A stretch of DNA of 64,000 nucleotides from an uncultured Actinomycetes bacterium (GCA_963767005.1 CAVYCN010000004.1:509479-573478); one strand, 5' to 3'. Positions 28,846-64,000 are shown, numbered from the stretch's first letter. Program-made: numbers and translations. Notes: generated by a model from the letters alone, not told the origin.

Positions 28846-29259
28846 CGGCCCCCGCCTAAGACAGAGCGGAGCCAGGTCCTTTGGGCCGCAGGGCGCCGGG
28901 TGCACTCCGAGTGTTGGCTGGGGCCGACTGGGCATTGGCGCCTCTCGAATCTGCCGCGGCCTCCACGGTCGACGGGACTGACCGTCGGCAGGTCTGCGAG
29001 ACGGCGCCGCCCGCAACGGTATGGCGCCATCGGGCGCCGGGTAACCAGCTCAAGAATCCGTCCTCCCGGACCACCCTGACAGGCCCAAAACCAGCATATG
29101 CGTCGGGCCTGGCGATCGGGCCGTCAGCTTGCTTTGCTGGCGGCCCGGTCTATGCACAGGGCTCCGCCACCGGCCGACGCCGACGGGCGCTCCAAGCAGG
29201 TGCGCCGCGCCCCTTGTGCCGGTGGGCGCTCCAGACAGACGCGCGTCAAGGGGGACAGC

Positions 29260-30503
29260 ATGCGCGGACACATCGGCAGGCGGGGCGAGCACAGCTACGA
29301 GTACATCGTCGATGTCGGCATGGCCTCAGCTCAACGCTGCCAGGCCTGCGGCCGGCGCTTCTGGGTGGAGCGCAAGCTCCGGGAGTCCTGCCCGAAGTGC
29401 GGTGGCAAGCTGCTCGAGACCGAGGAGCGTCGCCGCGCGATCAAGGGCGGATTTGCCACGCGCCGCGAGTGCGAAGCGGCCCTGGCCAAGTGCTGGCCGC
29501 CGTAGAGACGCAGAGCTTCACAGCGCCCACCAAGGTCGCGGTCAAGCAGTTCCTTCTTGCGGAGTGGCTACCGACGGTCAAGGGCAGCCTGCGACCGACG
29601 ACCTACTCTTCCTACGTGATGCTCACCCGCGAGCACATCCTGCCGCGTCTGGGCGCCCTGCAGCTGCAGAAGCTCACGCCCGGGGCGATCAACGCGCTCT
29701 ACGCCGATCTTCTGGAGAGGGGCCGGGTTCAGGGCAAGGGCGGCCTCTCGGCCTCCTCGGTACGCCGCGTGCACGGCGTGTTGCACAAGGCCTGTCGCGA
29801 CGCCGTGCGCTGGGGCAGGCTCTCGTCTAACCCGGTGGCCTGCGCCGATCCGCCCAGGCAAAGCACCCCGCACCGCGACAGGCTGCGCGTCTGGAACGCC
29901 GAGCAGCTCAGTGCCCTCCTCGCCCACGTTGCCGACGACCGCCTCTTCGCCCTCTGGGGGCTGCTGGCCATGACCGGCATGCGCAGGGGAGAGGCCCTCG
30001 GCCTTTCCTGGGAGGACCTCGATATGGAAGCGGGAGCCGTCGCCATCCGCCGCGCCTGGATCCCGGTGGACGGCGTGGCTCAGTTCTCGGAGCCCAAGAG
30101 CAGGCGCAGCCGGCGCACGATCGCACTGGATCCCGTGACCTTGGAGGCCATGAAGACCCACGCTGCCCGTCAGGCCGACGAGCAGTCTGGTTGGCAGGTG
30201 GGCCTGGCGGAGGCTGGCTTGGTCTTCACCCGGCCCGACGGTCGCCCCCTGGTGCCCTGGGTGGTGAGCAAGGCCTTTGGCGATCACGGCCGCGCGGCCC
30301 TGCTGCCGCGCATCCCGCTCCATGGCCTGCGCCACACCTACGCCGCCCCGGCCTTGGCCAGCGGGGTCAACCCGCGGATCGTCTCGGCGTGCCTGGGCCA
30401 TGCCACCGTGGCCCTCACCCTAAATGTCTGCTCGCACGTCTTACCGCAGGCCGACCGCGAGGCGGCCGAGAAGATCGCGGCGCTGCTGTCTGACTCGGTC
30501 TAG
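29260..30503 (+). pseudogene. Tyrosine integrase, inactivated
   Basis: Arm-like N-terminus MRGHIGRRG, frameshift near 29490, TGMRRGE, HGLRHT, LGH; catalytic Tyr position reads Cys (LNVCSHV). Confidence 0.85.
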
Positions 30504-30925: not shown

Positions 30926-31004
30926 AGCAGCAAGAAGCGCTGCGTAGAGGCACTTTCTGGTGGGCCGCCTGGGACTCGAACCCAGGACTCCCTGATTAGA
31001 AGTG
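30926..31004 (-). repeat. att-like repeat copy 1 containing the 3' half of a tRNA (probably Lys)
   Basis: Minus strand CTTCTAATCAGGGAGTCCTGGGTTCGAGTCCCAGGCGGCCCACCA: T-arm and CCA present, no 5' half; about 79 bp shared with 34124-34202. Confidence 0.85.
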
Positions 31005-34123: not shown

Positions 34124-34202
34124 AGCAGCAAGAAGCGCTGCGTAGAGGAACTTTCTGGTGGGCCGCCTGGGACTCGAACCCAGGACTCCCTGACTAAAAG
34201 TG
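34124..34202 (-). repeat. att-like repeat copy 2 containing the 3' half of a tRNA (probably Lys)
   Basis: Minus strand CTTTTAGTCAGGGAGTCCTGGGTTCGAGTCCCAGGCGGCCCACCA; 3 mismatches to copy 1; no 5' half. Confidence 0.85.
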
Positions 34203-34502: not shown

Positions 34503-35204
34503 CTAAGAGGCTTCCGCCTTGGTCAGCGTCCAGTTGACGAACTCCTCCCAGAGCTTCATCGCAGAGGCGACGTCGACGCTGGCTGGGTCGGCCAGGAGCT
34601 GTATCGCAAGACCGTCGGTCATCGCAACGGTCAGTGCGGCGATCGTTCTCAGCTCGGTCGATAGCGAGGAACGGTCATCGGAGGCCAACGCCGACACATT
34701 CGACGTCGTGTAGGAGTCGTACAGCTGTGCCAATTGGCTGCGGGTCTTGGGATCGTCGAGCACGTGGGGCAGAAGCTCGTAGAAGAGGCCGTACCCGGTG
34801 GTGTCCGAGAGAAGGCCGGCCGGGTCCTGCATGAACACCGTGACCCGGTTCTCGCCTTCGGGAAGCTTGGCAAGCTGCTGACCGACCTCCCAGAGCGTGT
34901 CGTACATGAGCCAGTCGAGGAGCGCGACGCACAGACCCGCTTTGTTGCCGAAGTGGTAGCTGACCAGGTTCGGGCTCAGGGCAGCCTCGCGCCCGATGGC
35001 CTTGTAGGAGAGGGCCTTGTAGCCGGATCTTTGGACCAGCCGTCTCGCAGCTTCGAGCAGCTGGCGAGCGGTGGGGGAGAGACTGGCTCGGGAGCTTGGC
35101 ACAGGAAAGGCGCTGCGCGGAGAGGACGGCCCGCGAGCCGTCCTGGAAGTCGAGCCTGATCCGTTTCCGCGCGCCTTTCCCGCCACCTCGACGATCACCT
35201 CCAC
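34503..35204 (-). CDS. TetR family regulator, divergent from mttB
   Basis: QLLEAARRLV..GY..LSYKAIGREAALSPNLVSYHFGNKAGL; start uncertain. Confidence 0.85.
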   Translation of the reverse strand: MEVIVEVAGKARGNGSGSTSRTARGPSSPRSAFPVPSSRASLSPTARQLLEAARRLVQRSGYKALSYKAIGREAALSPNLVSYHFGNKAGLCVALLDWLMYDTLWEVGQQLAKLPEGENRVTVFMQDPAGLLSDTTGYGLFYELLPHVLDDPKTRSQLAQLYDSYTTSNVSALASDDRSSLSTELRTIAALTVAMTDGLAIQLLADPASVDVASAMKLWEEFVNWTLTKAEAS

Positions 35205-35590: not shown

Positions 35591-37054
35591 ATGAAGAGAG
35601 GTTTCGGTGCGGGCGGCACGCGTCATGGGGGGGTGGGGCTTACCCTATTGACGGAGAGCGAGCTCGCGGAGATTCAGCGCTCCACCCTGGAGCTCCTGGA
35701 GCACACGGGGGTGTGGGTCGAAGACGACGAGGCTCTCTCGATCCTGGTGGACGGAGGCTGTCGCGCAGATCGGAAGACGCACATCGTCAAGTTCCCGGGC
35801 TACCTCGTCGAGGCGGCGATCGAGTCGGCTCCGCGGACCTTCCGGCTCTGCGGGCGCGACGAGAGCAAGGACGTGGTGCTTGGCGGCAACCTCGTTCACT
35901 TCATGAACTTCGGCATCGGCATCAACCTCAACGACATCAACACAGGTGAGCATCGGCCGAGCGTGAAGAGCGACGTGGCCGATGCCGCAAGGATGGTCGA
36001 CTACTGCAGCGATATCGACGTCCTACTCGAGCCCCTCGTTCCGCACGACGTCGCTCACCCCGCTCTGCACATCCTGCAGGTGGAACTCAACAACTGCACG
36101 AAGCCGGCGATCTCCGGTCCGGGCTCAGCCGAAGAAGCGGTCGCCTGCATCGAGCTGGCCGCCGCGGTCGCCGGCGGACGCGAGGCGCTGCGTGAACGGC
36201 CTCTGATCGGCATGGGTGGTTGCACCGTCAGCCCCCTTGAGCTGACGCGCGAGGCGAGCTGCGCTTGGCTGACGGGCGCTCGCGCCGGCGTCCCCGTCTC
36301 GATAACGTCGATGACGATGGCCGGCGGCAGCGGGCCTCAGACGCTGGCAGGCACGCTCGTGGTCGCCAACGCCGAGGTGCTCGCCGCGACCACGCTGGTG
36401 CAGCTGGCAGCCAGGGGCAACCCGGTCATCTTCTCGTCATCGACCTTGGCAATGGACCTGCGGTACGGCGCCGCGGTGCTCGGCACGCCTGAGGGGGCGC
36501 TCCTGAACTCGGGGTTCGCGCAGCTCGCGCAAATGCATGGCATCCCTTCGTGGGTCCAGGGGTTGTAGGCAGACTCGAAGATCGGTGACGCCCAGACGGG
36601 ACACGAGAAGACCCTCACCGGACTTGCGGCAGCGTTGGCAGGGGCCAACCTGATCTACGGTGCGGGGATGTTCGAGTCGGGCATCACTTTCGACTACGGC
36701 CAGCTCCTGGTCGACAACGAGATCGCTGGTCTGATCAAGCGCTTCGTCCAGGGGATTCCGGTGACCGAGGAGACCCTGGCGCTCGACGTCATCCACGAGG
36801 TCGGACCCAAGGGTGACTACCTGAGCTGCTCACACACCATGCGTCACATGCGTGAGACGGCCACGCCTCTCCTCCTCGACCGGCGAGTGCGTGTGGAGTG
36901 GGCGGCGGACGGTGCCACCGACCTCTACACACGCGGTGTCCAGGAGGCTCGTCGCGTCCTCGCCGAGCACGCCGTGGAGCCTCTGCCTGACGACGTCCAG
37001 GTCGAGATGGCCGGGATCGTCGAGCAGGCAGAAGCGGCGATGGCGATCGCCTGA
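35591..37054 (+). CDS. mttB: Pyrrolysine-containing trimethylamine:corrinoid methyltransferase (in-frame TAG 36566-36568, codon 326; 487 aa)
   Basis: Two same-frame ORFs joined by a single TAG: GIPSWVQGL-O-ADSKIGDAQTGHEKT..LAGANLIYGAGM, matching the MttB Pyl-site context; pylB and pylD downstream. Confidence 0.93.
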
Positions 37055-37094: not shown

Positions 37095-37733
37095 ATGACA
37101 GATTTCGAGACCCTCAAGCAGATCGTCATCTCGGGAGACGACCAGGCCATCGCCGAGACGCAGAAGCTTGCCGATGGCGGCGCGAGCGCTCGCGACATTC
37201 TCGACAACGCTCTGCTGCCGGCCATGGACGTCGTGGGCGAGCGGATGAAGACCGGCGCCATGTTCATCCCAGAGGTGCTGCTCAGCGCGCGCACGATGCA
37301 GAGCTGCCTCGACCTCATCAAGCCGCTGCTCGCCGCGGGCGACTCCGGAAGCCTGGGGACGGTCGTGATCGGGACCGTGGAAGGCGACGTCCACGACATA
37401 GGCAAGAACCTGGTCGCCATGCTCATGTCGGGTGCCGGCTTCGAGGTGATCAACCTCGGCAAGGGCGTGACCGCCGCCGATTTCGTCGCCGCGGTGCGCG
37501 AGCACAAGCCCGAGATCCTCGGCATGAGCGGCCTGCTCACCACCACGATCCCGAAGATGCCCGAGGTCCTCAACGCCCTCAAGGCGGCGGGTCTTCGCGA
37601 CCAGGTCAAGGTTATCGTTGGCGGGGCCCCCGTGAGCGAGGCCTGGGCTCAGGAGATCGGAGCGGACGCGTACGGGGCGAACGCTTCGCTCGCCGTCGAG
37701 AAGTCCAAGGAGCTGCTGCGCGTCAACGTGTGA
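37095..37733 (+). CDS. mttC: Cognate corrinoid (B12-binding) protein
   Basis: FIPEVL cap, GTVEGDVHDIGKNLV (DxHxxG), GMSGLLTTT, VGGAPV. Confidence 0.9.
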   Translation: MTDFETLKQIVISGDDQAIAETQKLADGGASARDILDNALLPAMDVVGERMKTGAMFIPEVLLSARTMQSCLDLIKPLLAAGDSGSLGTVVIGTVEGDVHDIGKNLVAMLMSGAGFEVINLGKGVTAADFVAAVREHKPEILGMSGLLTTTIPKMPEVLNALKAAGLRDQVKVIVGGAPVSEAWAQEIGADAYGANASLAVEKSKELLRVNV

Positions 37734-37869
37734 CGGGCGTGGTTGCCGGCCTCCGGTCCCTGCTGCCGTGGGACCGGAGGCCGGATGGCCCGAAAGGAGA
37801 CCCGAGCCGATTCTCGATCGGGGCCAGCTAAGACGGCAAATCACCTGTCTGTCACTGCTAGGGGGACCC

Positions 37870-39291
37870 ATGGAGCAGAATGTGAATCTGGTCACCGAGG
37901 AGCAGCACCTGCATCGCAGCCTCGGGACCGCGGGCAACGTCATGCTCACCCTGTCCGCATGCGGTCTGGCGATGACCGTGTTCATCTACGTCCCGGTGGT
38001 CTACTTCGTCGCCGGCACATGGTCGTTCCTTGCTACAGCGATCGGGGCGGTCGTCGCGTTCGCGGTCGCGCTAGTCTACGCGGAGGTGGGAACCGCCTTT
38101 CCGATTGCCGGCGGCGAGTACTCGATGATCTCACGAGTACTGGGGCCAGGTGTCGGCTTCATCGTCTTTGTGATTCAGCTCTCGTTCTACGTCCTGATGC
38201 TCGCCACGTTCTCGCTAGGCGCGGGTATCCAGCTTCAAAGCGTATGGCACTCAGTCGATCCCAAAGTCATTGGCCTCGCCGTGTTCGCCATCGCCGCGGC
38301 CATGGCCGTCCCCGATATCAAGATCGGCCGGAGCGTGACCGCCGTGCTGTTCGTCCTGCAGCTCGCGGCCATCGCCGTGGTCAGCTTCCTCGGGATTGCC
38401 CACGCGCACTCACCGGCGACCAGGCTCTTTCATCTGCAAGGACTGGCACCGAGCGGCACAGCCATGGCGTTTACCTGGTCGGTGATTCTGGTGGGGCTGA
38501 CGCTGGGGTTCTTCAACCTGACTGGATTCAATCTCGTGATCGTCTTCTCGGAAGAGACCAAGGAGCCCAAGAAGCGAGTCCCGCGCGCTTTGCTGTGGGC
38601 CGTCGGGATTATCGTCGTGATCATCCTCGTGCCGACCGGGGCGGCGTTGCTCGGAGCTCCCTCGCTCAAAGGTCTTCTCTCGAGTCCTGCGCCGATGAGC
38701 TACATCATGAGCAGCTTCGGGGCGGGCTCGCTCGGGACATTCGTCAACCTCGTCGTCTTCGTAGCCATCGTCAACATGCAGCTTGCCAACGTCATCGCAT
38801 TCGGGCGTTTTCTCTACTCGGGCTCGCGTGACCGTGCCTTCCCGGCTCCGGTCAATCGGCTCTTCTCCGTGCTTCACCCACGCTTCGGGACTCCATGGAT
38901 CGCCAGCCTGTTCATGGCGGCGCTGGGCGCGGCGGCGATGTTCTCGTCGGCCATCACCGGACTGGTCACGCTCACGGGGTTCATCACCCTGGTGTTCATG
39001 AGCCTGATGTGCATCTCGGCCATCCGCATCCGCTCGCTACGTGACGCACCGGACCACTATCGCATGCCGGCTTGGCCAGTGATCCCTGTGGCAGTGATTG
39101 CCTTCTTCGTGGTCCTGGCTACCGGTCAGACCAAACACGACCTCATCATCACGGCATGCATCGCGGCAGCAGGTGTCGTCTACTACTTCGCTTACTTGTG
39201 GCCGCGGCGCGATCGGCGGTGGCAGCTGTGGAGGCCGGAGGAGTCTACGATCGTGTCTTCGGAATCCACTCCGGGTGTGCCGACCGTCTGA
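37870..39291 (+). CDS. APC-family amino acid/amine permease 1
   Basis: YAEVGTAFPIAGGEY, FSEETK, LHPRFGTP, 12 TM segments. Confidence 0.9.
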   Translation: MEQNVNLVTEEQHLHRSLGTAGNVMLTLSACGLAMTVFIYVPVVYFVAGTWSFLATAIGAVVAFAVALVYAEVGTAFPIAGGEYSMISRVLGPGVGFIVFVIQLSFYVLMLATFSLGAGIQLQSVWHSVDPKVIGLAVFAIAAAMAVPDIKIGRSVTAVLFVLQLAAIAVVSFLGIAHAHSPATRLFHLQGLAPSGTAMAFTWSVILVGLTLGFFNLTGFNLVIVFSEETKEPKKRVPRALLWAVGIIVVIILVPTGAALLGAPSLKGLLSSPAPMSYIMSSFGAGSLGTFVNLVVFVAIVNMQLANVIAFGRFLYSGSRDRAFPAPVNRLFSVLHPRFGTPWIASLFMAALGAAAMFSSAITGLVTLTGFITLVFMSLMCISAIRIRSLRDAPDHYRMPAWPVIPVAVIAFFVVLATGQTKHDLIITACIAAAGVVYYFAYLWPRRDRRWQLWRPEESTIVSSESTPGVPTV

Positions 39292-39307: not shown

Positions 39308-40729
39308 ATGAGCGTCAAGGCCGAAGACCCCGTCGGCGAGAGGCATTACGAGCAGGAGCTCAACCGCTCTCTCGGGACGCTGGGCAACGCCATGCTGACG
39401 CTGTCGGCGATGTCGCCGGCGACGACCGTCTTCGTCTATGTGCCCGTCATCTACTTCGTGGCGGGTTCGTGGTCGTTCCTTGCGACGGTCGTCGCCGGTG
39501 TCGTCGCCCTCGGGATGGCCTTGGTCTACGCGGAGCTTGGCACAGCCTTCCCATTCGCCGGAGGCGAGTATGCGATGATCGGCCGCATCCTGGGACCTGC
39601 TGTCGGCTTTCTCGTCTTCGTCATACAGCTCGTCATCTACGTTCTGCTGCTGGCCGTCTACGCGGTTGGCGCCGGGCAGCAGTTGCAGGTCGTCTGGCCC
39701 AGCCTCGACGTAAGGCTGATCGGGCTGGTCACGCTGGTCGTCGCCGGCGCATTGAGCGTGCTGAACGTGAAGGTCAGCTGGATCGTGACGAGCGCGATGC
39801 TTTTCGTGGAGCTGCTGGCGGTCGGTTCGCTGACCGTTCTCGGCATCGTCCACGCCCATGCCCCGGCGCACCGCCTGCTCGCGATCCACGTCTTCGCTCC
39901 GAGCGGTGCACCGGGACCGATCACATGGTCCGTGATCCTCATGGGCGTGACACTCGGCTTCTTCAACCTGACGGGCTTCAACTGCGCGGTCGTCTTCTCA
40001 GAGGAGACCCAGGACGCACGGCGCAAAGTGGCTCCGGCATTGATCTCAACCGTGCTCGCGGTCCTGGTGTTGGTCGGCATACCTACGGCCGCGGGTCTGG
40101 TAGGCGCCCCCTCACTGAAGGGTCTCGTCACGAGTGCCAACCCGATGAACTACCTGCTCAAGAGCTACGGAGCAGGGCGGATCGGCACCTTCATCGACCT
40201 CGCCGTCTTCGTGGCGATCTTCAACGCGCTGATTGCCAACGTCATGATCTTCGGGCGGGTCCTGTGGTCCAGTGCCCGCGACCGGGCAATGCCTGATCCT
40301 CTGAACCGCTGGCTCAACGCCGTGCATCCGACGCTGAAGACGCCCTGGGTCGCGTCACTCGTCATGGCGGCGATGGGAGCGGTTTGCATCTTCTCGTCGG
40401 CCTTGACCGGATTGGTCACGCTGTCGAGCATCGTCACGCTCGTCTTCATGGGCCTCATGTGTCTGGCTGCGCTGCGAGTCCGCCGTTTCGCTGACCTCCC
40501 CGCGCACTACGTCATGCCGGCGTGGCCGCTCATCCCGCTCGCCGTGCTCGCCGCGTTCGTCCTCATGGCGACGGGCCAGAGAATCCATGACCTGCTCATC
40601 ACGCTCGGCATCGCGGCGGTGGCGCTTGCCTACTACCTCCTCTACCTCAGGCCACGACCGACGTCCCGCTGGGTTCTGCTTGGAGCTGTCGAGGAGACCG
40701 CCAAGCGAAGAACGTCCGACGATTCGTAG
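39308..40729 (+). CDS. APC-family amino acid/amine permease 2 (paralogue of permease 1)
   Basis: YAELGTAFPFAGGEY, GFFNLTGFN shared with permease 1; GAGGA RBS. Confidence 0.9.
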   Translation: MSVKAEDPVGERHYEQELNRSLGTLGNAMLTLSAMSPATTVFVYVPVIYFVAGSWSFLATVVAGVVALGMALVYAELGTAFPFAGGEYAMIGRILGPAVGFLVFVIQLVIYVLLLAVYAVGAGQQLQVVWPSLDVRLIGLVTLVVAGALSVLNVKVSWIVTSAMLFVELLAVGSLTVLGIVHAHAPAHRLLAIHVFAPSGAPGPITWSVILMGVTLGFFNLTGFNCAVVFSEETQDARRKVAPALISTVLAVLVLVGIPTAAGLVGAPSLKGLVTSANPMNYLLKSYGAGRIGTFIDLAVFVAIFNALIANVMIFGRVLWSSARDRAMPDPLNRWLNAVHPTLKTPWVASLVMAAMGAVCIFSSALTGLVTLSSIVTLVFMGLMCLAALRVRRFADLPAHYVMPAWPLIPLAVLAAFVLMATGQRIHDLLITLGIAAVALAYYLLYLRPRPTSRWVLLGAVEETAKRRTSDDS

Positions 40730-40842
40730 CCCTGAGAGAGGACGGAAGCTACCACCCGCTGACCAACACCTGGGCGGTGCGCAAACGACCTCCCGCACCA
40801 AAGGAGCAACGCCGGCAAGTCGCCGGAAGGGGAGTGCCGAGA

Positions 40843-42294
40843 ATGGCGAGTTTCACAGTGTCAGCGCTGAACGGGGCCGAGCGCGAGTTCCTGCATGACT
40901 GCACGCTGAAGGTGCTCGAGCGCACAGGCGTGCGCTTCGACAGCGCTGCGGCGCGTTCGGCGTTGGCCGAGGCGAGCTGCCGCATCGATGAGGATACGTC
41001 TGTCGTTCGGTTTCCGCGCGACCTCGTGGAGTGGGCCCTGGCGAAGCTGCGCAGCGACGTTCTCCTTGCGGCACGTGACCCCGTAAAGGACGCCGTGCTG
41101 GACGGATCTCACACCGTTGTCGTGCCGGCTGGCATCTGCCCTTATGTAAGGGACGAGGCGTCGGGCGAACGCAGGGACGCCTCGCTCGAGGACCTCGCAG
41201 CGTTCGGGCGCGTCTGCGACGAGCTCGACGAGATCGGCGCTCTGTGGTTTCCGGTCGTGCCGGATGCCGCCACTTGTGGGACGGCGGTCGACCTTGTCAG
41301 TCTGGCGACCCTCCTGGCAACGACCTCAAAACACATTCAGGGCCAGTTGGTGAGGCCCGCCGACGTGCCGGTGGCACAGGAGCTGCTCGCGGCCGCTTGT
41401 CCTGACGAGGACCTGCGGAAGCGGCCCATCTTCTCGAGCCTCTACTGCCCCGTCTCGCCAATGGTTCACGAAGCCGAGCCCATCGAAGCGGCCCTGGCCA
41501 TGGTGGCGGCCGGCATCCCGCTTCTGGTGATCACCCTCCCACTGGCGGGCGGGACGGCGCCTGTCACACTCGCAGGCGCCATGGTCCAGAACATGGCCGA
41601 GACGCTCAGCGCCGTGGTCCTGTTCAAGCTGGCCAACGAGGACTGTCCGTTGATCCTGGCAGGGACGACCGCGCTGATGGACCTCGCCAGTGGGGCCTTT
41701 GCTACGTCGGTCCCCGAGATTGCGCTGCTCAACGCGGCGCATGTCGAATGGCTCCACTCGTACGGCGCGCCCGCCATGAGCGTGGGCTATCCCACCGACT
41801 CCTTTGGGTTCAGTCACAGGGCCGGCGTTGAATCAATGGGCTACGGCACCCTAACCCGCCTCGCGAGGCCAGACATGATGCTCGGACCCGGCAACATGGC
41901 AGCGGGCACCGTCATGTCTCTGACTAAGCTCGTCTTCGACTGCGACCTGCTCTCCTACAGCGCCAGGTTGCTGGCCGGCATCCAGATCGATGAGGAGCAC
42001 GCTCTTCTTGATGCCATCGACCAGGTAGGCCCAGGGGGCAATCATCTAGAGCGAGAGGAGACCTTGGCGTTCCTGCGCCGCCGGGAACACTGGCGCCCGC
42101 GGCTGCTGGCCCGTACGACCTACGAAGACTGGCTACGCGGGCCGCCCGATGAGATGCGCCACGCCGCGGATCGAGTCAAGGAGCTCCTCGGCAGGCGCGC
42201 GTCCCAACCCCTACCCGAGGGGGCGCTTGGGAGGATGAAGCAGGTTCTGTTGGACGCTCGACCCGAGGCGCGCGCTGTCGTCGAGCGTCTCTGA
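40843..42294 (+). CDS. Non-pyrrolysine MttB-superfamily methyltransferase
   Basis: LKVLERTGV, VSPM, LAGGTAPVTLAGAMVQNMAETL, IDQVGPGGNHL; no TAG, Pro at the Pyl-equivalent site (VGY-P-TDS). Confidence 0.85.
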   Translation: MASFTVSALNGAEREFLHDCTLKVLERTGVRFDSAAARSALAEASCRIDEDTSVVRFPRDLVEWALAKLRSDVLLAARDPVKDAVLDGSHTVVVPAGICPYVRDEASGERRDASLEDLAAFGRVCDELDEIGALWFPVVPDAATCGTAVDLVSLATLLATTSKHIQGQLVRPADVPVAQELLAAACPDEDLRKRPIFSSLYCPVSPMVHEAEPIEAALAMVAAGIPLLVITLPLAGGTAPVTLAGAMVQNMAETLSAVVLFKLANEDCPLILAGTTALMDLASGAFATSVPEIALLNAAHVEWLHSYGAPAMSVGYPTDSFGFSHRAGVESMGYGTLTRLARPDMMLGPGNMAAGTVMSLTKLVFDCDLLSYSARLLAGIQIDEEHALLDAIDQVGPGGNHLEREETLAFLRRREHWRPRLLARTTYEDWLRGPPDEMRHAADRVKELLGRRASQPLPEGALGRMKQVLLDARPEARAVVERL

Positions 42295-42300
42295 TCGACG

Positions 42301-43422
42301 ATGAACCCGGCTTTCGCGACTGATCTCTGTTCAGGGGTCTTGCAGGGCAGGCTTCCGTGCGTCGACGAGGTCGAGGCTCTCCTAAGCCTGCACGATGCCG
42401 ATGCTGCGGAGCCCCTCTTTGCTGCCGCCCGCGAGCAGCGTCGCCGCCACTTCGGCAACGCGGTCTTCCTCTACGGCTTCGTCTACTGGTCGACTCACTG
42501 CCGCAACAGCTGCAGCTTCTGCTTCTACCGCTCAGCCAATCGCCAAAGTCCGCGCTATCGAAAGGGCCGCGACGAGGTCGTGGAGCTTTGCCGCGCCCTG
42601 GCGGAGTCGGGCGTCAACCTGCTCGACCTTACCCTCGGCGAGGATCCCCTGCTCTTCGGCCGACGCGACTTCGCGCCGCTGGTCGACTTGGTCGGCGCCG
42701 TGCGGCGGGCCACCGATCTGCCGATCATGGTCTCGCCGGGAGTTGTCGATCGCTCCACGCTGGCTGCTCTCTCGAGCGCCGGCTGCGACTTCTACGCCGT
42801 CTATCAGGAGACACATACGCCCAGACTGTTCGCCCGCCTGCGCTGCGGCCAGGACTTCGACGAGCGTGTCTGGGCGCGGCGGGACGCACACGAGATCGGT
42901 CTGCTCGTTGAGGACGGTCTACTGACCGGCGTCGGCGACGGCGTCTCAGACCGGGCTCGCGCCGTGCTTGCCATGCGCGCCGCAGGCGACCAGCAGGTGC
43001 GCGCCATGACCTTCGTGCCGCAGCCCCAGACACCGCTCGGCTACCTGCGCCAACAGAGTAACTGGCACGAGCTTCTCGTGATCGCCGTCATGCGTCTACT
43101 CATGCCGGATCGCCTCATCCCAGCGTCGCTCGACGTCGAAGGCATCGAGGGCCTGAAGAGTCGCCTCGACGCTGGCGCCAACGTGGTCACCTCTCTCGTG
43201 CCGCCGCGCAGCGGGTTGTGCGGCGTAGCGAGGGCCGACTACGAGATCGACGACGGCCTGCGCACAGCTGAGGCGGTCCGCCCTCACCTGATGGAGCTCG
43301 GCCTGCGACAGGGCACACGGTCGGAGTTCGATTCGTGGCTCGAGGCTGCCCGCTCGCGTTACCTGATTCATAGCCTCGCGCACCAGCCGAAGAGCCACCT
43401 CGTTACCAGGAGTTCGCGATGA
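42301..43422 (+). CDS. pylB: Radical-SAM 3-methylornithine synthase
   Basis: VFLYGFVYWSTHCRNSCSFCFY (CxxxCxxC), DLTLGEDP, YQETH, VEDGLLTGVG, MTFVPQ..TP, IPASLDVEGIEG, AGANVVTSLVP. Confidence 0.92.
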   Translation: MNPAFATDLCSGVLQGRLPCVDEVEALLSLHDADAAEPLFAAAREQRRRHFGNAVFLYGFVYWSTHCRNSCSFCFYRSANRQSPRYRKGRDEVVELCRALAESGVNLLDLTLGEDPLLFGRRDFAPLVDLVGAVRRATDLPIMVSPGVVDRSTLAALSSAGCDFYAVYQETHTPRLFARLRCGQDFDERVWARRDAHEIGLLVEDGLLTGVGDGVSDRARAVLAMRAAGDQQVRAMTFVPQPQTPLGYLRQQSNWHELLVIAVMRLLMPDRLIPASLDVEGIEGLKSRLDAGANVVTSLVPPRSGLCGVARADYEIDDGLRTAEAVRPHLMELGLRQGTRSEFDSWLEAARSRYLIHSLAHQPKSHLVTRSSR

Positions 43423-43474
43423 GAGCTGGCGACGCAACCTTGTCGGCGAGCTCCATCTCCTCATGCGGGGCGCG

Positions 43475-43720
43475 ATGAACTTCGACGAAGCGGTCTGTGC
43501 CGGGAGACCTGCCTTCAACTGGCTGGAGAGCGGGCAGGTGCTCGGCTACGAGCCCAAAGACCGGACGGTGCGCATGCTCCCCTACCCTGCGACGCCTGGC
43601 GCCTGGCGCACGGCTCCCCTTTACGGTGTCCTGCTCCCTGAGGAGGGCTGGGGCCATCACTGCGGCTGCAGCTGTTGGCACTGCCGAAACGAAGCGACCC
43701 TCACCGGACTGGAGGAGTAA
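43475..43720 (+). CDS. Small hypothetical protein with HHCGCSCWHC motif
   Basis: Fills the gap between pylB and the DeoR-HTH gene, good codon usage; alternative start at 43463. Confidence 0.6.
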   Translation: MNFDEAVCAGRPAFNWLESGQVLGYEPKDRTVRMLPYPATPGAWRTAPLYGVLLPEEGWGHHCGCSCWHCRNEATLTGLEE

Positions 43721-43722
43721 CC

Positions 43723-44037
43723 GTGTCAAGCGATGTCGGTTGCCCGTATCAGGCAGCTAGGAAGATGGCGGTCTGGGAACGCCGCGCGCGGATTCTAGGG
43801 ATCCTCGAACAGCGGCTCTCGGTGCGGACCTCCTCGCTTGCCCGTCAGTTCGGGGTCACAGAGGCGACCATCCGCAGGGACTTGGAGCGTCTCGAGCAGG
43901 GCGGTCTCGTGGAGCGGTCTCATGGCGGGGCGTTGGCACTTCGAGCCCGGCGCATCTACGACCCGGCTGCTTTGCCGGGACGTCACATGTTGCTGGACCA
44001 CGGCCTTGGTGAACGGCCGTGGGGCGGCCGGCAGTGA
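43723..44037 (+). CDS. Stand-alone DeoR-type HTH protein
   Basis: ERRARIL..LARQFGVTEATIRRDLERLEQGGLVERSHGGA; GGAGG before GTG; no sensor domain; stop overlaps the pylD start (GTGA). Confidence 0.8.
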   Translation: MSSDVGCPYQAARKMAVWERRARILGILEQRLSVRTSSLARQFGVTEATIRRDLERLEQGGLVERSHGGALALRARRIYDPAALPGRHMLLDHGLGERPWGGRQ

Positions 44038-44858
44038 CTCGTCTTACCGAACACGACGTGCGCGATCTGGCCTGTCGCCTCGGGGGATTCGAGTGTGACC
44101 TGCGCGCCGTCAGCGGCCTCGACCTGCGTGATCTTGCCGCTAGGTCGTGCGGCCTCGACCCTCACTGGCTGCAGTTCGGCAAGGTCCGCACGGCGGCGGT
44201 GCCGGTCTCCTCGGGACAAGGCGCCATACCGTTCTTCTCGCAATGCATTGAGGTCATCCTCCGTCACCTCGGTTGTGATGCCTTCGTCACCCAGCAGCCC
44301 GACGTCAAGGGCATCCAGGAGGCGGCCAGCCGCGGCGCCGAGATCGTCTTTCTGGCAGATGACGACCGCTTCGTCGCACTGAATATCAGAAGCGGCGCCT
44401 GCGCCGACGACGACCCCTGCACCGCCAACGGCTACGTCACCGCCCTCGAGGCGGCGGCGGGCGGCCTCAGCCTGCGCAGCGTCGCCGTGCTTGGTCTGGG
44501 GCCGGTCGGGCGAGCGGCCACCCGACGGCTTATCCAGCTCGGCGCCACAGTGGTGGCGGTCGAGCCGGATGTGCTCCGGGCCACCTCCGCCGCCAGCGAC
44601 TACACACTGCGGATCGTCTCGCTGCCCGAGGCTCTGGAGGTCACAGACTATCTCTTCGACGCGACGCCGGCGGCCGACCTGATCGACCACGCTGCCGTTG
44701 GCCCCTGCACCGTTGCGGCCGTGCCGGCCGTGCCGAGCAGCTTCACAGCGGCCGCCCAGGCCGTGCTGGGCATGCGCCACATCCACGAGCCGTTGGCCAT
44801 CGGCGTCGCCGTCATGGCAGTGGAAGCGTTGACCGGTCGGACGAGCCCTGGAGCGTGA
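44034..44858 (+). CDS. pylD: 3-methylornithyl-N6-lysine dehydrogenase (pyrrolysine synthase)
   Basis: TRLT..D start, VPVSSGQGAI..F, DVKG, FLADDDRFVALN, GYVTAL, VLGLGPVG, IHEPLAIGVAVM. Confidence 0.88.
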   Translation: MTRLTEHDVRDLACRLGGFECDLRAVSGLDLRDLAARSCGLDPHWLQFGKVRTAAVPVSSGQGAIPFFSQCIEVILRHLGCDAFVTQQPDVKGIQEAASRGAEIVFLADDDRFVALNIRSGACADDDPCTANGYVTALEAAAGGLSLRSVAVLGLGPVGRAATRRLIQLGATVVAVEPDVLRATSAASDYTLRIVSLPEALEVTDYLFDATPAADLIDHAAVGPCTVAAVPAVPSSFTAAAQAVLGMRHIHEPLAIGVAVMAVEALTGRTSPGA

Positions 44859-44946: not shown

Positions 44947-46041
44947 GTGACGCTCGTCGAGTCGCTGGAACTGCGGGTCGGTGCATCCGACCAAGCGGAC
45001 ACAAGCGTCGTCGAGAAGATTGGCTCGAGCTGCGGCGAGTTTGCCGGCGACGACGGACCTCTCCTCGAAAGCCTGGACGCCGCGGAGGGTGAGGGCGTAG
45101 AGGCGTTCGGTCTTCTGTCGCTCATGTCCGAACCTGTGATCGTCGATTCGGCAGAGGAAGCTCGTCTCGGCAGCGAAGAGCGGCTTGCTGGAGCTCCGGA
45201 GCGGGGTCCGGCCTTGGCCGTCGATGGCCTGCGCCATTACCTGCGACAGATCAGTCGGATACCGTTGCTCAGCGCCGTGCAGGAGGCTTCGCTCGCCGGG
45301 CGCATCGAGCGCGGCGACTCGATTGCTAGACGCCGCATGATCGAGTCGAACCTGCGACTCGTGGTACCAATCGCCAGGCGCTACGCGCGCGAGTCGCTGC
45401 CGCTGCTCGACCTCATCCAGGAGGGCAACATCGGCCTCATGCGGGCGGTCGAGAAGTTTGACTACCACAAGGGATACCGCTTCTCGACCTACGCCACATG
45501 GTGGATACGTCAGGCGGTCGCTCGCGCCGCATCCGAGCTCTCGCGCCCGTGCTGTGTCTCGAAGAACACGGCCGTGCAGTTGGACAGTCTGGGCCGCGTC
45601 CGCGGGTTCCTGTCGTCGGAGCTGGGTCGAGAGCCCACGGTCGGGGAGATCGCCGCCGACATGGGCATCACCCCGCAGAAGGTGCGCGAGCTGCAGGGGT
45701 GTCGGCTCACGCCGCTCAGCCTCGACACGCCGGTCGGCGAGTCGGGCGACTCGCGCCTGAGCGACATGATCGAAGACCGCGAGCTACCGGCGCCACTCGA
45801 GGTAGCCAGCCAGACTTTGCTGAGGGGGGATGTGGCGGAGCTGCTGTCGCTGCTCACCCTCCGTGAACGGACAGTGATGGAGGCTCGATTCGGCATCAAT
45901 CGCTCGGAGGCGGCATCCCTCAGGGAGGTTGGCGAGACGATCGGCCTTACGCGCGAGAGGATCCGTCAGATCGAGGCCAAGACCTTGGTCAAGTTGCGCA
46001 GCTATCGAGGGACTCTCCGTCTACGTGACAGCATCTCCTAG
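44947..46041 (+). CDS. RpoD/SigA-like sigma-70 factor (intact extra copy)
   Basis: [57 protein letters not shown]; start uncertain. Confidence 0.9.
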   Translation: MTLVESLELRVGASDQADTSVVEKIGSSCGEFAGDDGPLLESLDAAEGEGVEAFGLLSLMSEPVIVDSAEEARLGSEERLAGAPERGPALAVDGLRHYLRQISRIPLLSAVQEASLAGRIERGDSIARRRMIESNLRLVVPIARRYARESLPLLDLIQEGNIGLMRAVEKFDYHKGYRFSTYATWWIRQAVARAASELSRPCCVSKNTAVQLDSLGRVRGFLSSELGREPTVGEIAADMGITPQKVRELQGCRLTPLSLDTPVGESGDSRLSDMIEDRELPAPLEVASQTLLRGDVAELLSLLTLRERTVMEARFGINRSEAASLREVGETIGLTRERIRQIEAKTLVKLRSYRGTLRLRDSIS

Positions 46042-63832: not shown

Positions 63833-64000
63833 GCAGGGTAAGCGTCGTCTAGCCGTTGGCCGTGGACGGGGAAACGTCATGTCCCGTCCCATTTCCTTCG
63901 ATGATGGGGTCAACTTTGGCTAGGTTCAAAGCCGCCTGCTTCCGCGAGGATTCCACCACGGCACGCGGTCCGCAGAGCCCCATGACGAGCAGTCGCCACC

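Follow-up and report, generated by a model that had tools for sequence, protein, structure and literature searches.

What does a pyl cluster do that has kept pylB and pylD and has no pylC? In the described pathway PylB forms 3-methylornithine out of lysine, PylC joins this product to lysine and PylD closes the ring (PMC11467909). The window analysed here, a stretch of 64,000 nucleotides from contig C4 of an uncultured Actinomycetes bacterium, carries pylB and pylD next to an mttB gene. The sequence evidence suggests that this is a second pylB/pylD copy (pylB2, pylD2), likely gained with an island, in which pylC has been replaced, and that it probably adds pyrrolysine-making capacity by way of the PylC encoded on another contig, C3.

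Both genes are intact, as the initial annotation had judged, with no stop or frameshift in 1.95 kb and with both products above curated cut-offs (Table 1). PylB2 reaches 430.4 bits over the full TIGR03910 model (cut-off 348.2). PylD2, scanned as the ORF 44019-44858 with a likely start at 44034, reaches 192 bits with TIGR03911 (cut-off 150.05) and contains both PF21455 (PylD_N) and the NAD-binding domain. Full-length alignments are obtained with the solved structures of PylB (3T7V, E 9e-86) and PylD (4J43, E 5e-31), and the radical-SAM motif CxxxCxxC is retained at residues 67-74 of PylB2 in the alignment to 3T7V. Upstream, the mttB product with its in-frame TAG read as O scores 591.8 bits against the TIGR02369 cut-off of 525.

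Table 1. Features at and around the pylB2-pylD2 locus, numbered from the first letter of the window
Feature	Position	Strand	Basis or remark
Tyrosine integrase of neighbouring element	28881..30503	+	PF00589, PF14659
Second att-like repeat, same tRNA-Lys end	30926..31004	-	
att-like repeat, tRNA-Lys(TTT) 3' 46 nt + 33 nt, left border of island	34124..34202	-	96% to C3:448551-448629
TetR-family regulator, divergent from operon	34503..35204	-	PF00440, E 1.7e-10
mttB, in-frame TAG at 36566-36568 (pyrrolysine position)	35591..37054	+	TIGR02369
Cognate corrinoid protein	37095..37733	+	PF02310, PF02607; MtgC/MtbC-like, under cut-offs
Amino-acid permease 1	37813..39291	+	PF13520
Amino-acid permease 2	39308..40729	+	PF13520; 67% nt identity to permease 1
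Pyrrolysine-free MttB-family methyltransferase	40777..42294	+	PF06253; Pro at the Pyl column (alignment to mttB)
pylB2 (methylornithine synthase, second copy)	42301..43422	+	TIGR03910, above cut-off
19-codon mini-ORF, possible pylC-start relic and translational coupler	43419..43478	+	Overlaps; weak pylC 5' match
81-aa protein, uncharacterised family	43475..43720 (alternative start 43463)	+	30 matches at E<=0.001
DeoR-type HTH without effector domain, 104 aa	43723..44037	+	PF08220
pylD2 (pyrrolysine synthase, second copy)	44034..44858	+	TIGR03911, above cut-off
Sigma-70 family gene	44947..46041	+	Pfam sigma-70 regions 1.2-4; also behind pylD in G008:C13

The 611 bp between pylB2 and pylD2 had been read as two small unrelated genes in place of pylC, and profile search and ORFs agree with this. 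Scanned with a profile made of this genome's PylC and related PylC proteins, the six frames of 43001-44300 yield no more than -0.5 bits, and the best E across the whole window is 0.56. None of the four TIGR03909 matches of the assembly falls inside the window, every PylSc/PylSn match lies on C3, and ARAGORN finds no tRNA gene in the window; the earlier impression, gained by eye, that the 64 kb hold no ATP-grasp ligase, PylRS or pyl tRNA was thus correct. The locus is therefore not a complete pyl cassette, pylC being absent between pylB2 and pylD2 and pylT and pylS being absent nearby. A promoter and terminator scan gave 2 against 0.9 and 7 against 4.7, not clearly over chance.

The missing genes are present elsewhere in the genome. 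The 19-contig assembly, which is 100% complete with 4.87% contamination, was searched as a whole for PylC, PylSc, PylSn and pylT, as the initial annotation had proposed, and the full set was found on C3. There, at C3:236048-246496, pylB, pylC, pylD and pylT follow one another, and pylSn and pylSc lie no more than 7 kb away; all five proteins exceed their own cut-offs, and a tRNA-Pyl is found. This intact set disproves the idea of a pathway split between the window and decoding genes elsewhere. The genome is pyrrolysine-decoding, having pylT, pylSc, pylSn, pylB, pylC and pylD together with TAG-containing methyltransferases (TAG in 7 of its 41 MttB-family matches). PylB2 and PylD2 are 56% and 47% identical to their C3 counterparts. 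A tRNA-Sec is also encoded (C4:389248-389345), so that both recoded amino acids occur in one genome.

Evidence that the cassette came with a mobile element lies to its left. The left border repeats the 3' end of a tRNA-Lys, the integrase of the neighbouring element is 81% identical at the nucleotide level to the integrase beside the tRNA-Lys on C3, and the stretch 34-44 kb has a G+C of 0.62-0.67, lower than the contigs with about 0.71. The marks of a tRNA island are present: a tRNA 3' repeat, an integrase and patchy presence in kin. In the closest relative, G011 (PylB 90% identical to that of C3), a comparable array of repeats is present and the sigma gene's 3' part is shared at 96%, but the cassette is missing; the cassette is dispensable, because G011 does without it. 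C4, which ends at window position 64000, does not include the island's far end; the intact tRNA-Lys lies 9 kb from the end of C3, and the contig ends do not overlap. A C3-C4 join by way of G011 was not confirmed, the G011 contig also ending in the array. A methylamine-utilisation island at tRNA-Lys is thus the likely source of pylB2 and pylD2.

The arrangement in relatives indicates what happened to pylC. Among 89 genomes of the family, this one included, pylD is found in 79, pylC in 80 and pylB in 78. In tables of pylC and pylD matches read by eye, pylC stands directly upstream of pylD in 76 of the 78 further pylD-bearing genomes of the family; in one exception (G009) pylD lies at a contig edge, and the other (G033) is a true exception. 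Likewise, pylC follows pylB at 26 of 29 pylB loci examined, a contig edge at two and pylD at one (G033). A contig scan of genomes gave one distant locus. The window copy forms one clade with L043, L045 and G008:C13 (bootstrap 100; in the protein tree the three have support 1.0), and the C3 copy falls outside it. In L045 the order is pylB-pylC-pylD. Two pyl sets occur in G008: the native one on C60 includes pylT, and the one on C13 is a cassette with corrinoid genes, mtbB, a permease gene and pylB-pylC-pylD-sigma. The latter shares the pylD-sigma order with the window; in that assembly its pylB, pylC, pylD and sigma genes all have frameshifts and so are no guide to their condition. Since these closest relatives both read pylB-pylC-pylD, the cassette of this clade originally had pylC, which has been lost in the window. 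Canonical pylBCD in relatives was the finding that the initial annotation had set against its own reading of the operon; G008:C13 and L045 provide it, and the middle segment of the window is a replacement of pylC, not mere displacement. Two pylB-pylC sets each occur in G008 (C13, C60) and G009 (C33, C371), members of the same genus; the double set of G009 could represent strain duplicates (7% contamination).

In all, pylB-pylD without pylC occurs at the window, in L043 and in G033. L043 reads permease, Usp, pylB, 162 bp, pylD, and its gap retains a good pylC start (score 20.5; 99.9th percentile of controls 21.3). A gap sequence common to the window and L043 is unsupported, its best local score being reached by 70 of 1000 shuffles; five other gap comparisons were all at chance. 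In G033 (97% complete) the sole pylD stands beside pylB, and pylC-pylT is on another contig, which makes this genome a partial precedent, by analogy, for PylC supplied from elsewhere. Within the 5' end of pylC, the pylC contig of G033 passes from DNA of about 30% G+C to DNA of about 72% (L077:6800-6900, G033:C7), by a chimeric join or an insertion; the precedent is weakened because pylC is there joined to DNA of 30% G+C.

From 43419 to 44037 the pylB stop, the mini-ORF, the 81-aa ORF, the HTH ORF and pylD form a chain of overlaps with one 2-base gap: the ATG of the mini-ORF overlaps the pylB stop, its TGA overlaps the next ATG, and the stop of the HTH ORF overlaps the pylD start. By its layout, this chain would keep pylD translated. 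The ATG at 43419 is the place where pylC begins in relatives, and the sequence that follows it bears a weak likeness to pylC 5' ends (a score as high is reached at 50 of 4000 control ATGA sites). A pylC 3' relic in the tail of the HTH ORF is unsupported, its score being reached by 162, 599 and 1479 of 3000 controls at three motif widths.

The 81-aa ORF had seemed an orphan, with no relative in a word-based search and no usable hit in the Atlas; full search overturned this, with 30 matches at E<=0.001, most aligned from the ATG at 43475 and one (P0080) a long repetitive sequence and likely a chance match. By this conservation the ORF encodes a real protein. Its family shares a WxHxxxCxCxxC tail (in an alignment of the query with 23 of these matches, 24 sequences in all), possibly a metal site, and has members scattered over 33 of the 89 family genomes. 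Pfam, PHROG and PDB gave no match, and the confident model (pLDDT 86) gave no PDB fold match at E<=0.001. The DeoR-type ORF matches PF08220 with 54.9 bits (cut-off 21, E 7e-15); among the 21 families listed the PF00455 effector domain is absent, and the ORF stops at 104 aa. A 97-aa relative (72% identity) diverges at the same point, and longer relatives are ordinary DeoR regulators. With full-length DeoR/GlpR members, which have about 230-290 aa, the 104-aa ORF shares the N-terminal HTH at up to 59% identity over about 60 residues, and two shorter matches reach 66 and 70%; unlike them it has no PF00455. No pyl or DeoR gene lies within about 1.5 kb of the other 81-aa family loci (0 of 29, L086-L114), which leaves a dedicated regulatory pair of the 81-aa ORF and the HTH unsupported. 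The two small genes are likely passengers.

How, then, might the pair work? The genes from mttB through pylD may form one transcript, on which ribosomes leaving pylB would be led by the start-stop overlaps across the insert and on to pylD. PylB2 would convert lysine to 3-methylornithine, the PylC of C3 would ligate this to lysine, either PylD could close the ring, and the PylS and pylT of C3 would decode the TAG in mttB. The island would thus bring in an MttB that depends on pyrrolysine, together with additional PylB and PylD, and would draw PylC, PylS and tRNA-Pyl from C3. The intermediates of the pathway are small, diffusible molecules, so adjacency of the genes is unnecessary. PylB is reported to be the rate-limiting step (PMC8225853), and an extra pylB beside a pyrrolysine consumer is therefore the part most worth keeping; this leaves the retention of pylD unexplained. 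In Methanosarcina, pyl expression is described as rising with demand (PMC13663744). Among the three readings offered by the initial annotation, that of a booster copy is the sole survivor, and the boost in supply stays a prediction from gene content.

The main rival, which we consider rather unlikely, is that a redundant pylBCD came with the island and lost pylC recently, so that pylB2 and pylD2 are unselected leftovers that have not yet decayed. It is favoured by the full pyl set that the host already had, by G011 living without the cassette and by the retention of pylC before pylD in nearly all the other pylD-bearing genomes of the family. The pylC-less copies are also the longest branches of the clade (0.34 and 0.29 against 0.16 and 0.17). 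Against it stand the intact reading frames, the intact overlap chain into pylD and the lack of the same gene in L043 and G033, and also the conserved positions. PylB2 is changed at 3 of 120 (F63W, A162C, G243Q; range 0-15 among 40 sequences), F63W lying four residues before the first cluster cysteine, and PylD2 at none of 62 family-conserved positions (15 sequences). The dN/dS of the window copy to its sisters (0.20-0.25; controls 0.15-0.23) and the lack of excess amino-acid change on the window branch against the L045 branch (Fisher p 0.885 and 1.0) point the same way, as branch-averaged measures that are blind to recent loss of function. As far as the sequences tell, the retained pair bears no sign of decay.

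Alternatively, loss of pylC from accessory copies may itself be favoured. D-ornithine is also accepted by PylC and PylD (PMC11467909) and gives desmethyl-pyrrolysine, and more PylB per PylC would shift the balance towards 3-methylornithine. Two of the four clade members with both pylB and pylD sequences lack pylC (the window and L043), and the genome has four matches to an ornithine-racemase-like query, the best at 59%. We regard this reading as improbable: the numbers are tiny, the supply of D-ornithine is hypothetical, and the tree does not separate one pylC loss from two (AU test rejecting none of three topologies; support 38).

Work without PylC altogether is most unlikely. Here PylD2 would oxidise free 3-methylornithine to methyl-pyrroline carboxylate or use another carrier, in line with the lack of an ATP-grasp ligase in the window and with PylB relatives without nearby pylC or pylD in three family genomes, evidence that PylB can be put to other uses. 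PylD is described as acting on the lysine conjugate (PMC11467909), the sister cassette has pylC, and PylD2 has no conserved changes, against 11-15 of about 120 in the solo PylBs; nothing favours the earlier suggestion that PylB and PylD act on another methylornithine-derived product. Very doubtful, too, is a PylC-free two-step route from lysine to methyl-pyrroline carboxylate that would belong to a broader diversion of PylB in this family to uses outside the genetic code.

That the insert is an assembly or binning artefact is barely credible: the assembly is 4.87% contaminated and the locus lies 19 kb from a contig end, but the pylB/insert junction is crossed by contigs from two further studies, the 85-aa product from 43463 is recorded on five contigs, and a 90-aa form of the HTH is found on a separate contig of 3407 bp. 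Four of 11 listed public runs, from four studies, were compared, with 32 pieces listed and 1487 more beyond these. RNA data sets were not among the runs listed, which says nothing either way about expression. The two bridging contigs are short and near-identical (43327-43477 and 43364-43514, one difference each); because they come from two other studies, the pylB/insert side is not an assembly artefact. One piece covers 43856-44011 with no differences. Among the pieces listed, none spans the whole insert and none has 31 letters on each side of the insert/pylD junction, the one that crosses the pylD start having 22 letters upstream, too few to count; this junction rests on the assembly.

The solo PylBs deserve mention in their own right. 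In the family a separate PylB clade, with no pylC or pylD nearby, adjoins arginine-pathway, racemase and amidinotransferase genes (L071:184-7241 in G065:C157, L072 in G090:C7 and L073 in G086:C4). Its members exceed the TIGR03910 cut-off, are about 50% identical to both copies described here and are changed at the 11-15 positions given above. At L071 the order is argJ, amino-acid kinase, pylB-like gene, GntR, ornithine-racemase-like gene and amidinotransferase (E 2e-85 to 1JDX), which by gene content is a possible PylC-free route to 3-methylarginine. G065 and G090 also carry canonical pylBCD. The L072 contig mirrors itself, probably through faulty assembly, and its two pylB matches are counted as one. 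The occurrence of PylB next to an amidinotransferase may be of more consequence than the window locus itself. At L074 (G016:C52), L075 (G018:C9) and L076 (G066:C6), conversely, pylC-pylD-pylT and pylSc are present and no pylB was found in the genomes, which are 97%, 94% and 64% complete, respectively; in G018 a nitroreductase-like gene runs directly into pylC. Such genomes might insert desmethyl-pyrrolysine made from D-ornithine, or import a precursor.

Should the window copy work, nature would here be tuning pyrrolysine supply by gene dosage: an island brings a pyrrolysine-dependent enzyme together with the rate-limiting step and relies on the host for everything else. For engineers the copy is also a source of a divergent bacterial PylB/PylD pair. 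It adds no new pathway or code, and it illustrates that a gapped pyl cluster is unreadable without the rest of the genome. In the literature searched (main texts, mostly outside subscription journals) we found no description of an accessory pylB-pylD pair without pylC, and no paper on PylB with 3-methylarginine or on actinobacterial pylBCD; no pyl locus with missing pylC was found in the accessible portions of PMC12626013, PMC8124187 and 10.1101/2021.03.15.435355.

Compared with the pylTScBCDSn cluster of the Desulfitobacterium hafniense type, the window has PylB and PylD over their cut-offs, in the same order and beside mttB and a corrinoid gene. It differs in that pylC is replaced, that pylT and pylS are absent from the locus and that it is the genome's second set. 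Bacterial pyl clusters can be interrupted by other genes (PMC3941956), and additional, incomplete pyl copies have been described before in archaea. Methanomassiliicoccus luminyensis is reported to have two pyl clusters and an isolated third pylC and pylT, and in Ca. M. alvus pylB lies about 0.7 Mb from pylTSCD (PMC3941956); in HMET1 pylB is duplicated, and genes were lost after a regional duplication (PMC9071458). As far as these accounts go, the extra copies of Methanomassiliicoccales and HMET1 are duplications within a lineage, whereas the copies compared here are 47-56% identical, belong to different clades and pair pylB with pylD.
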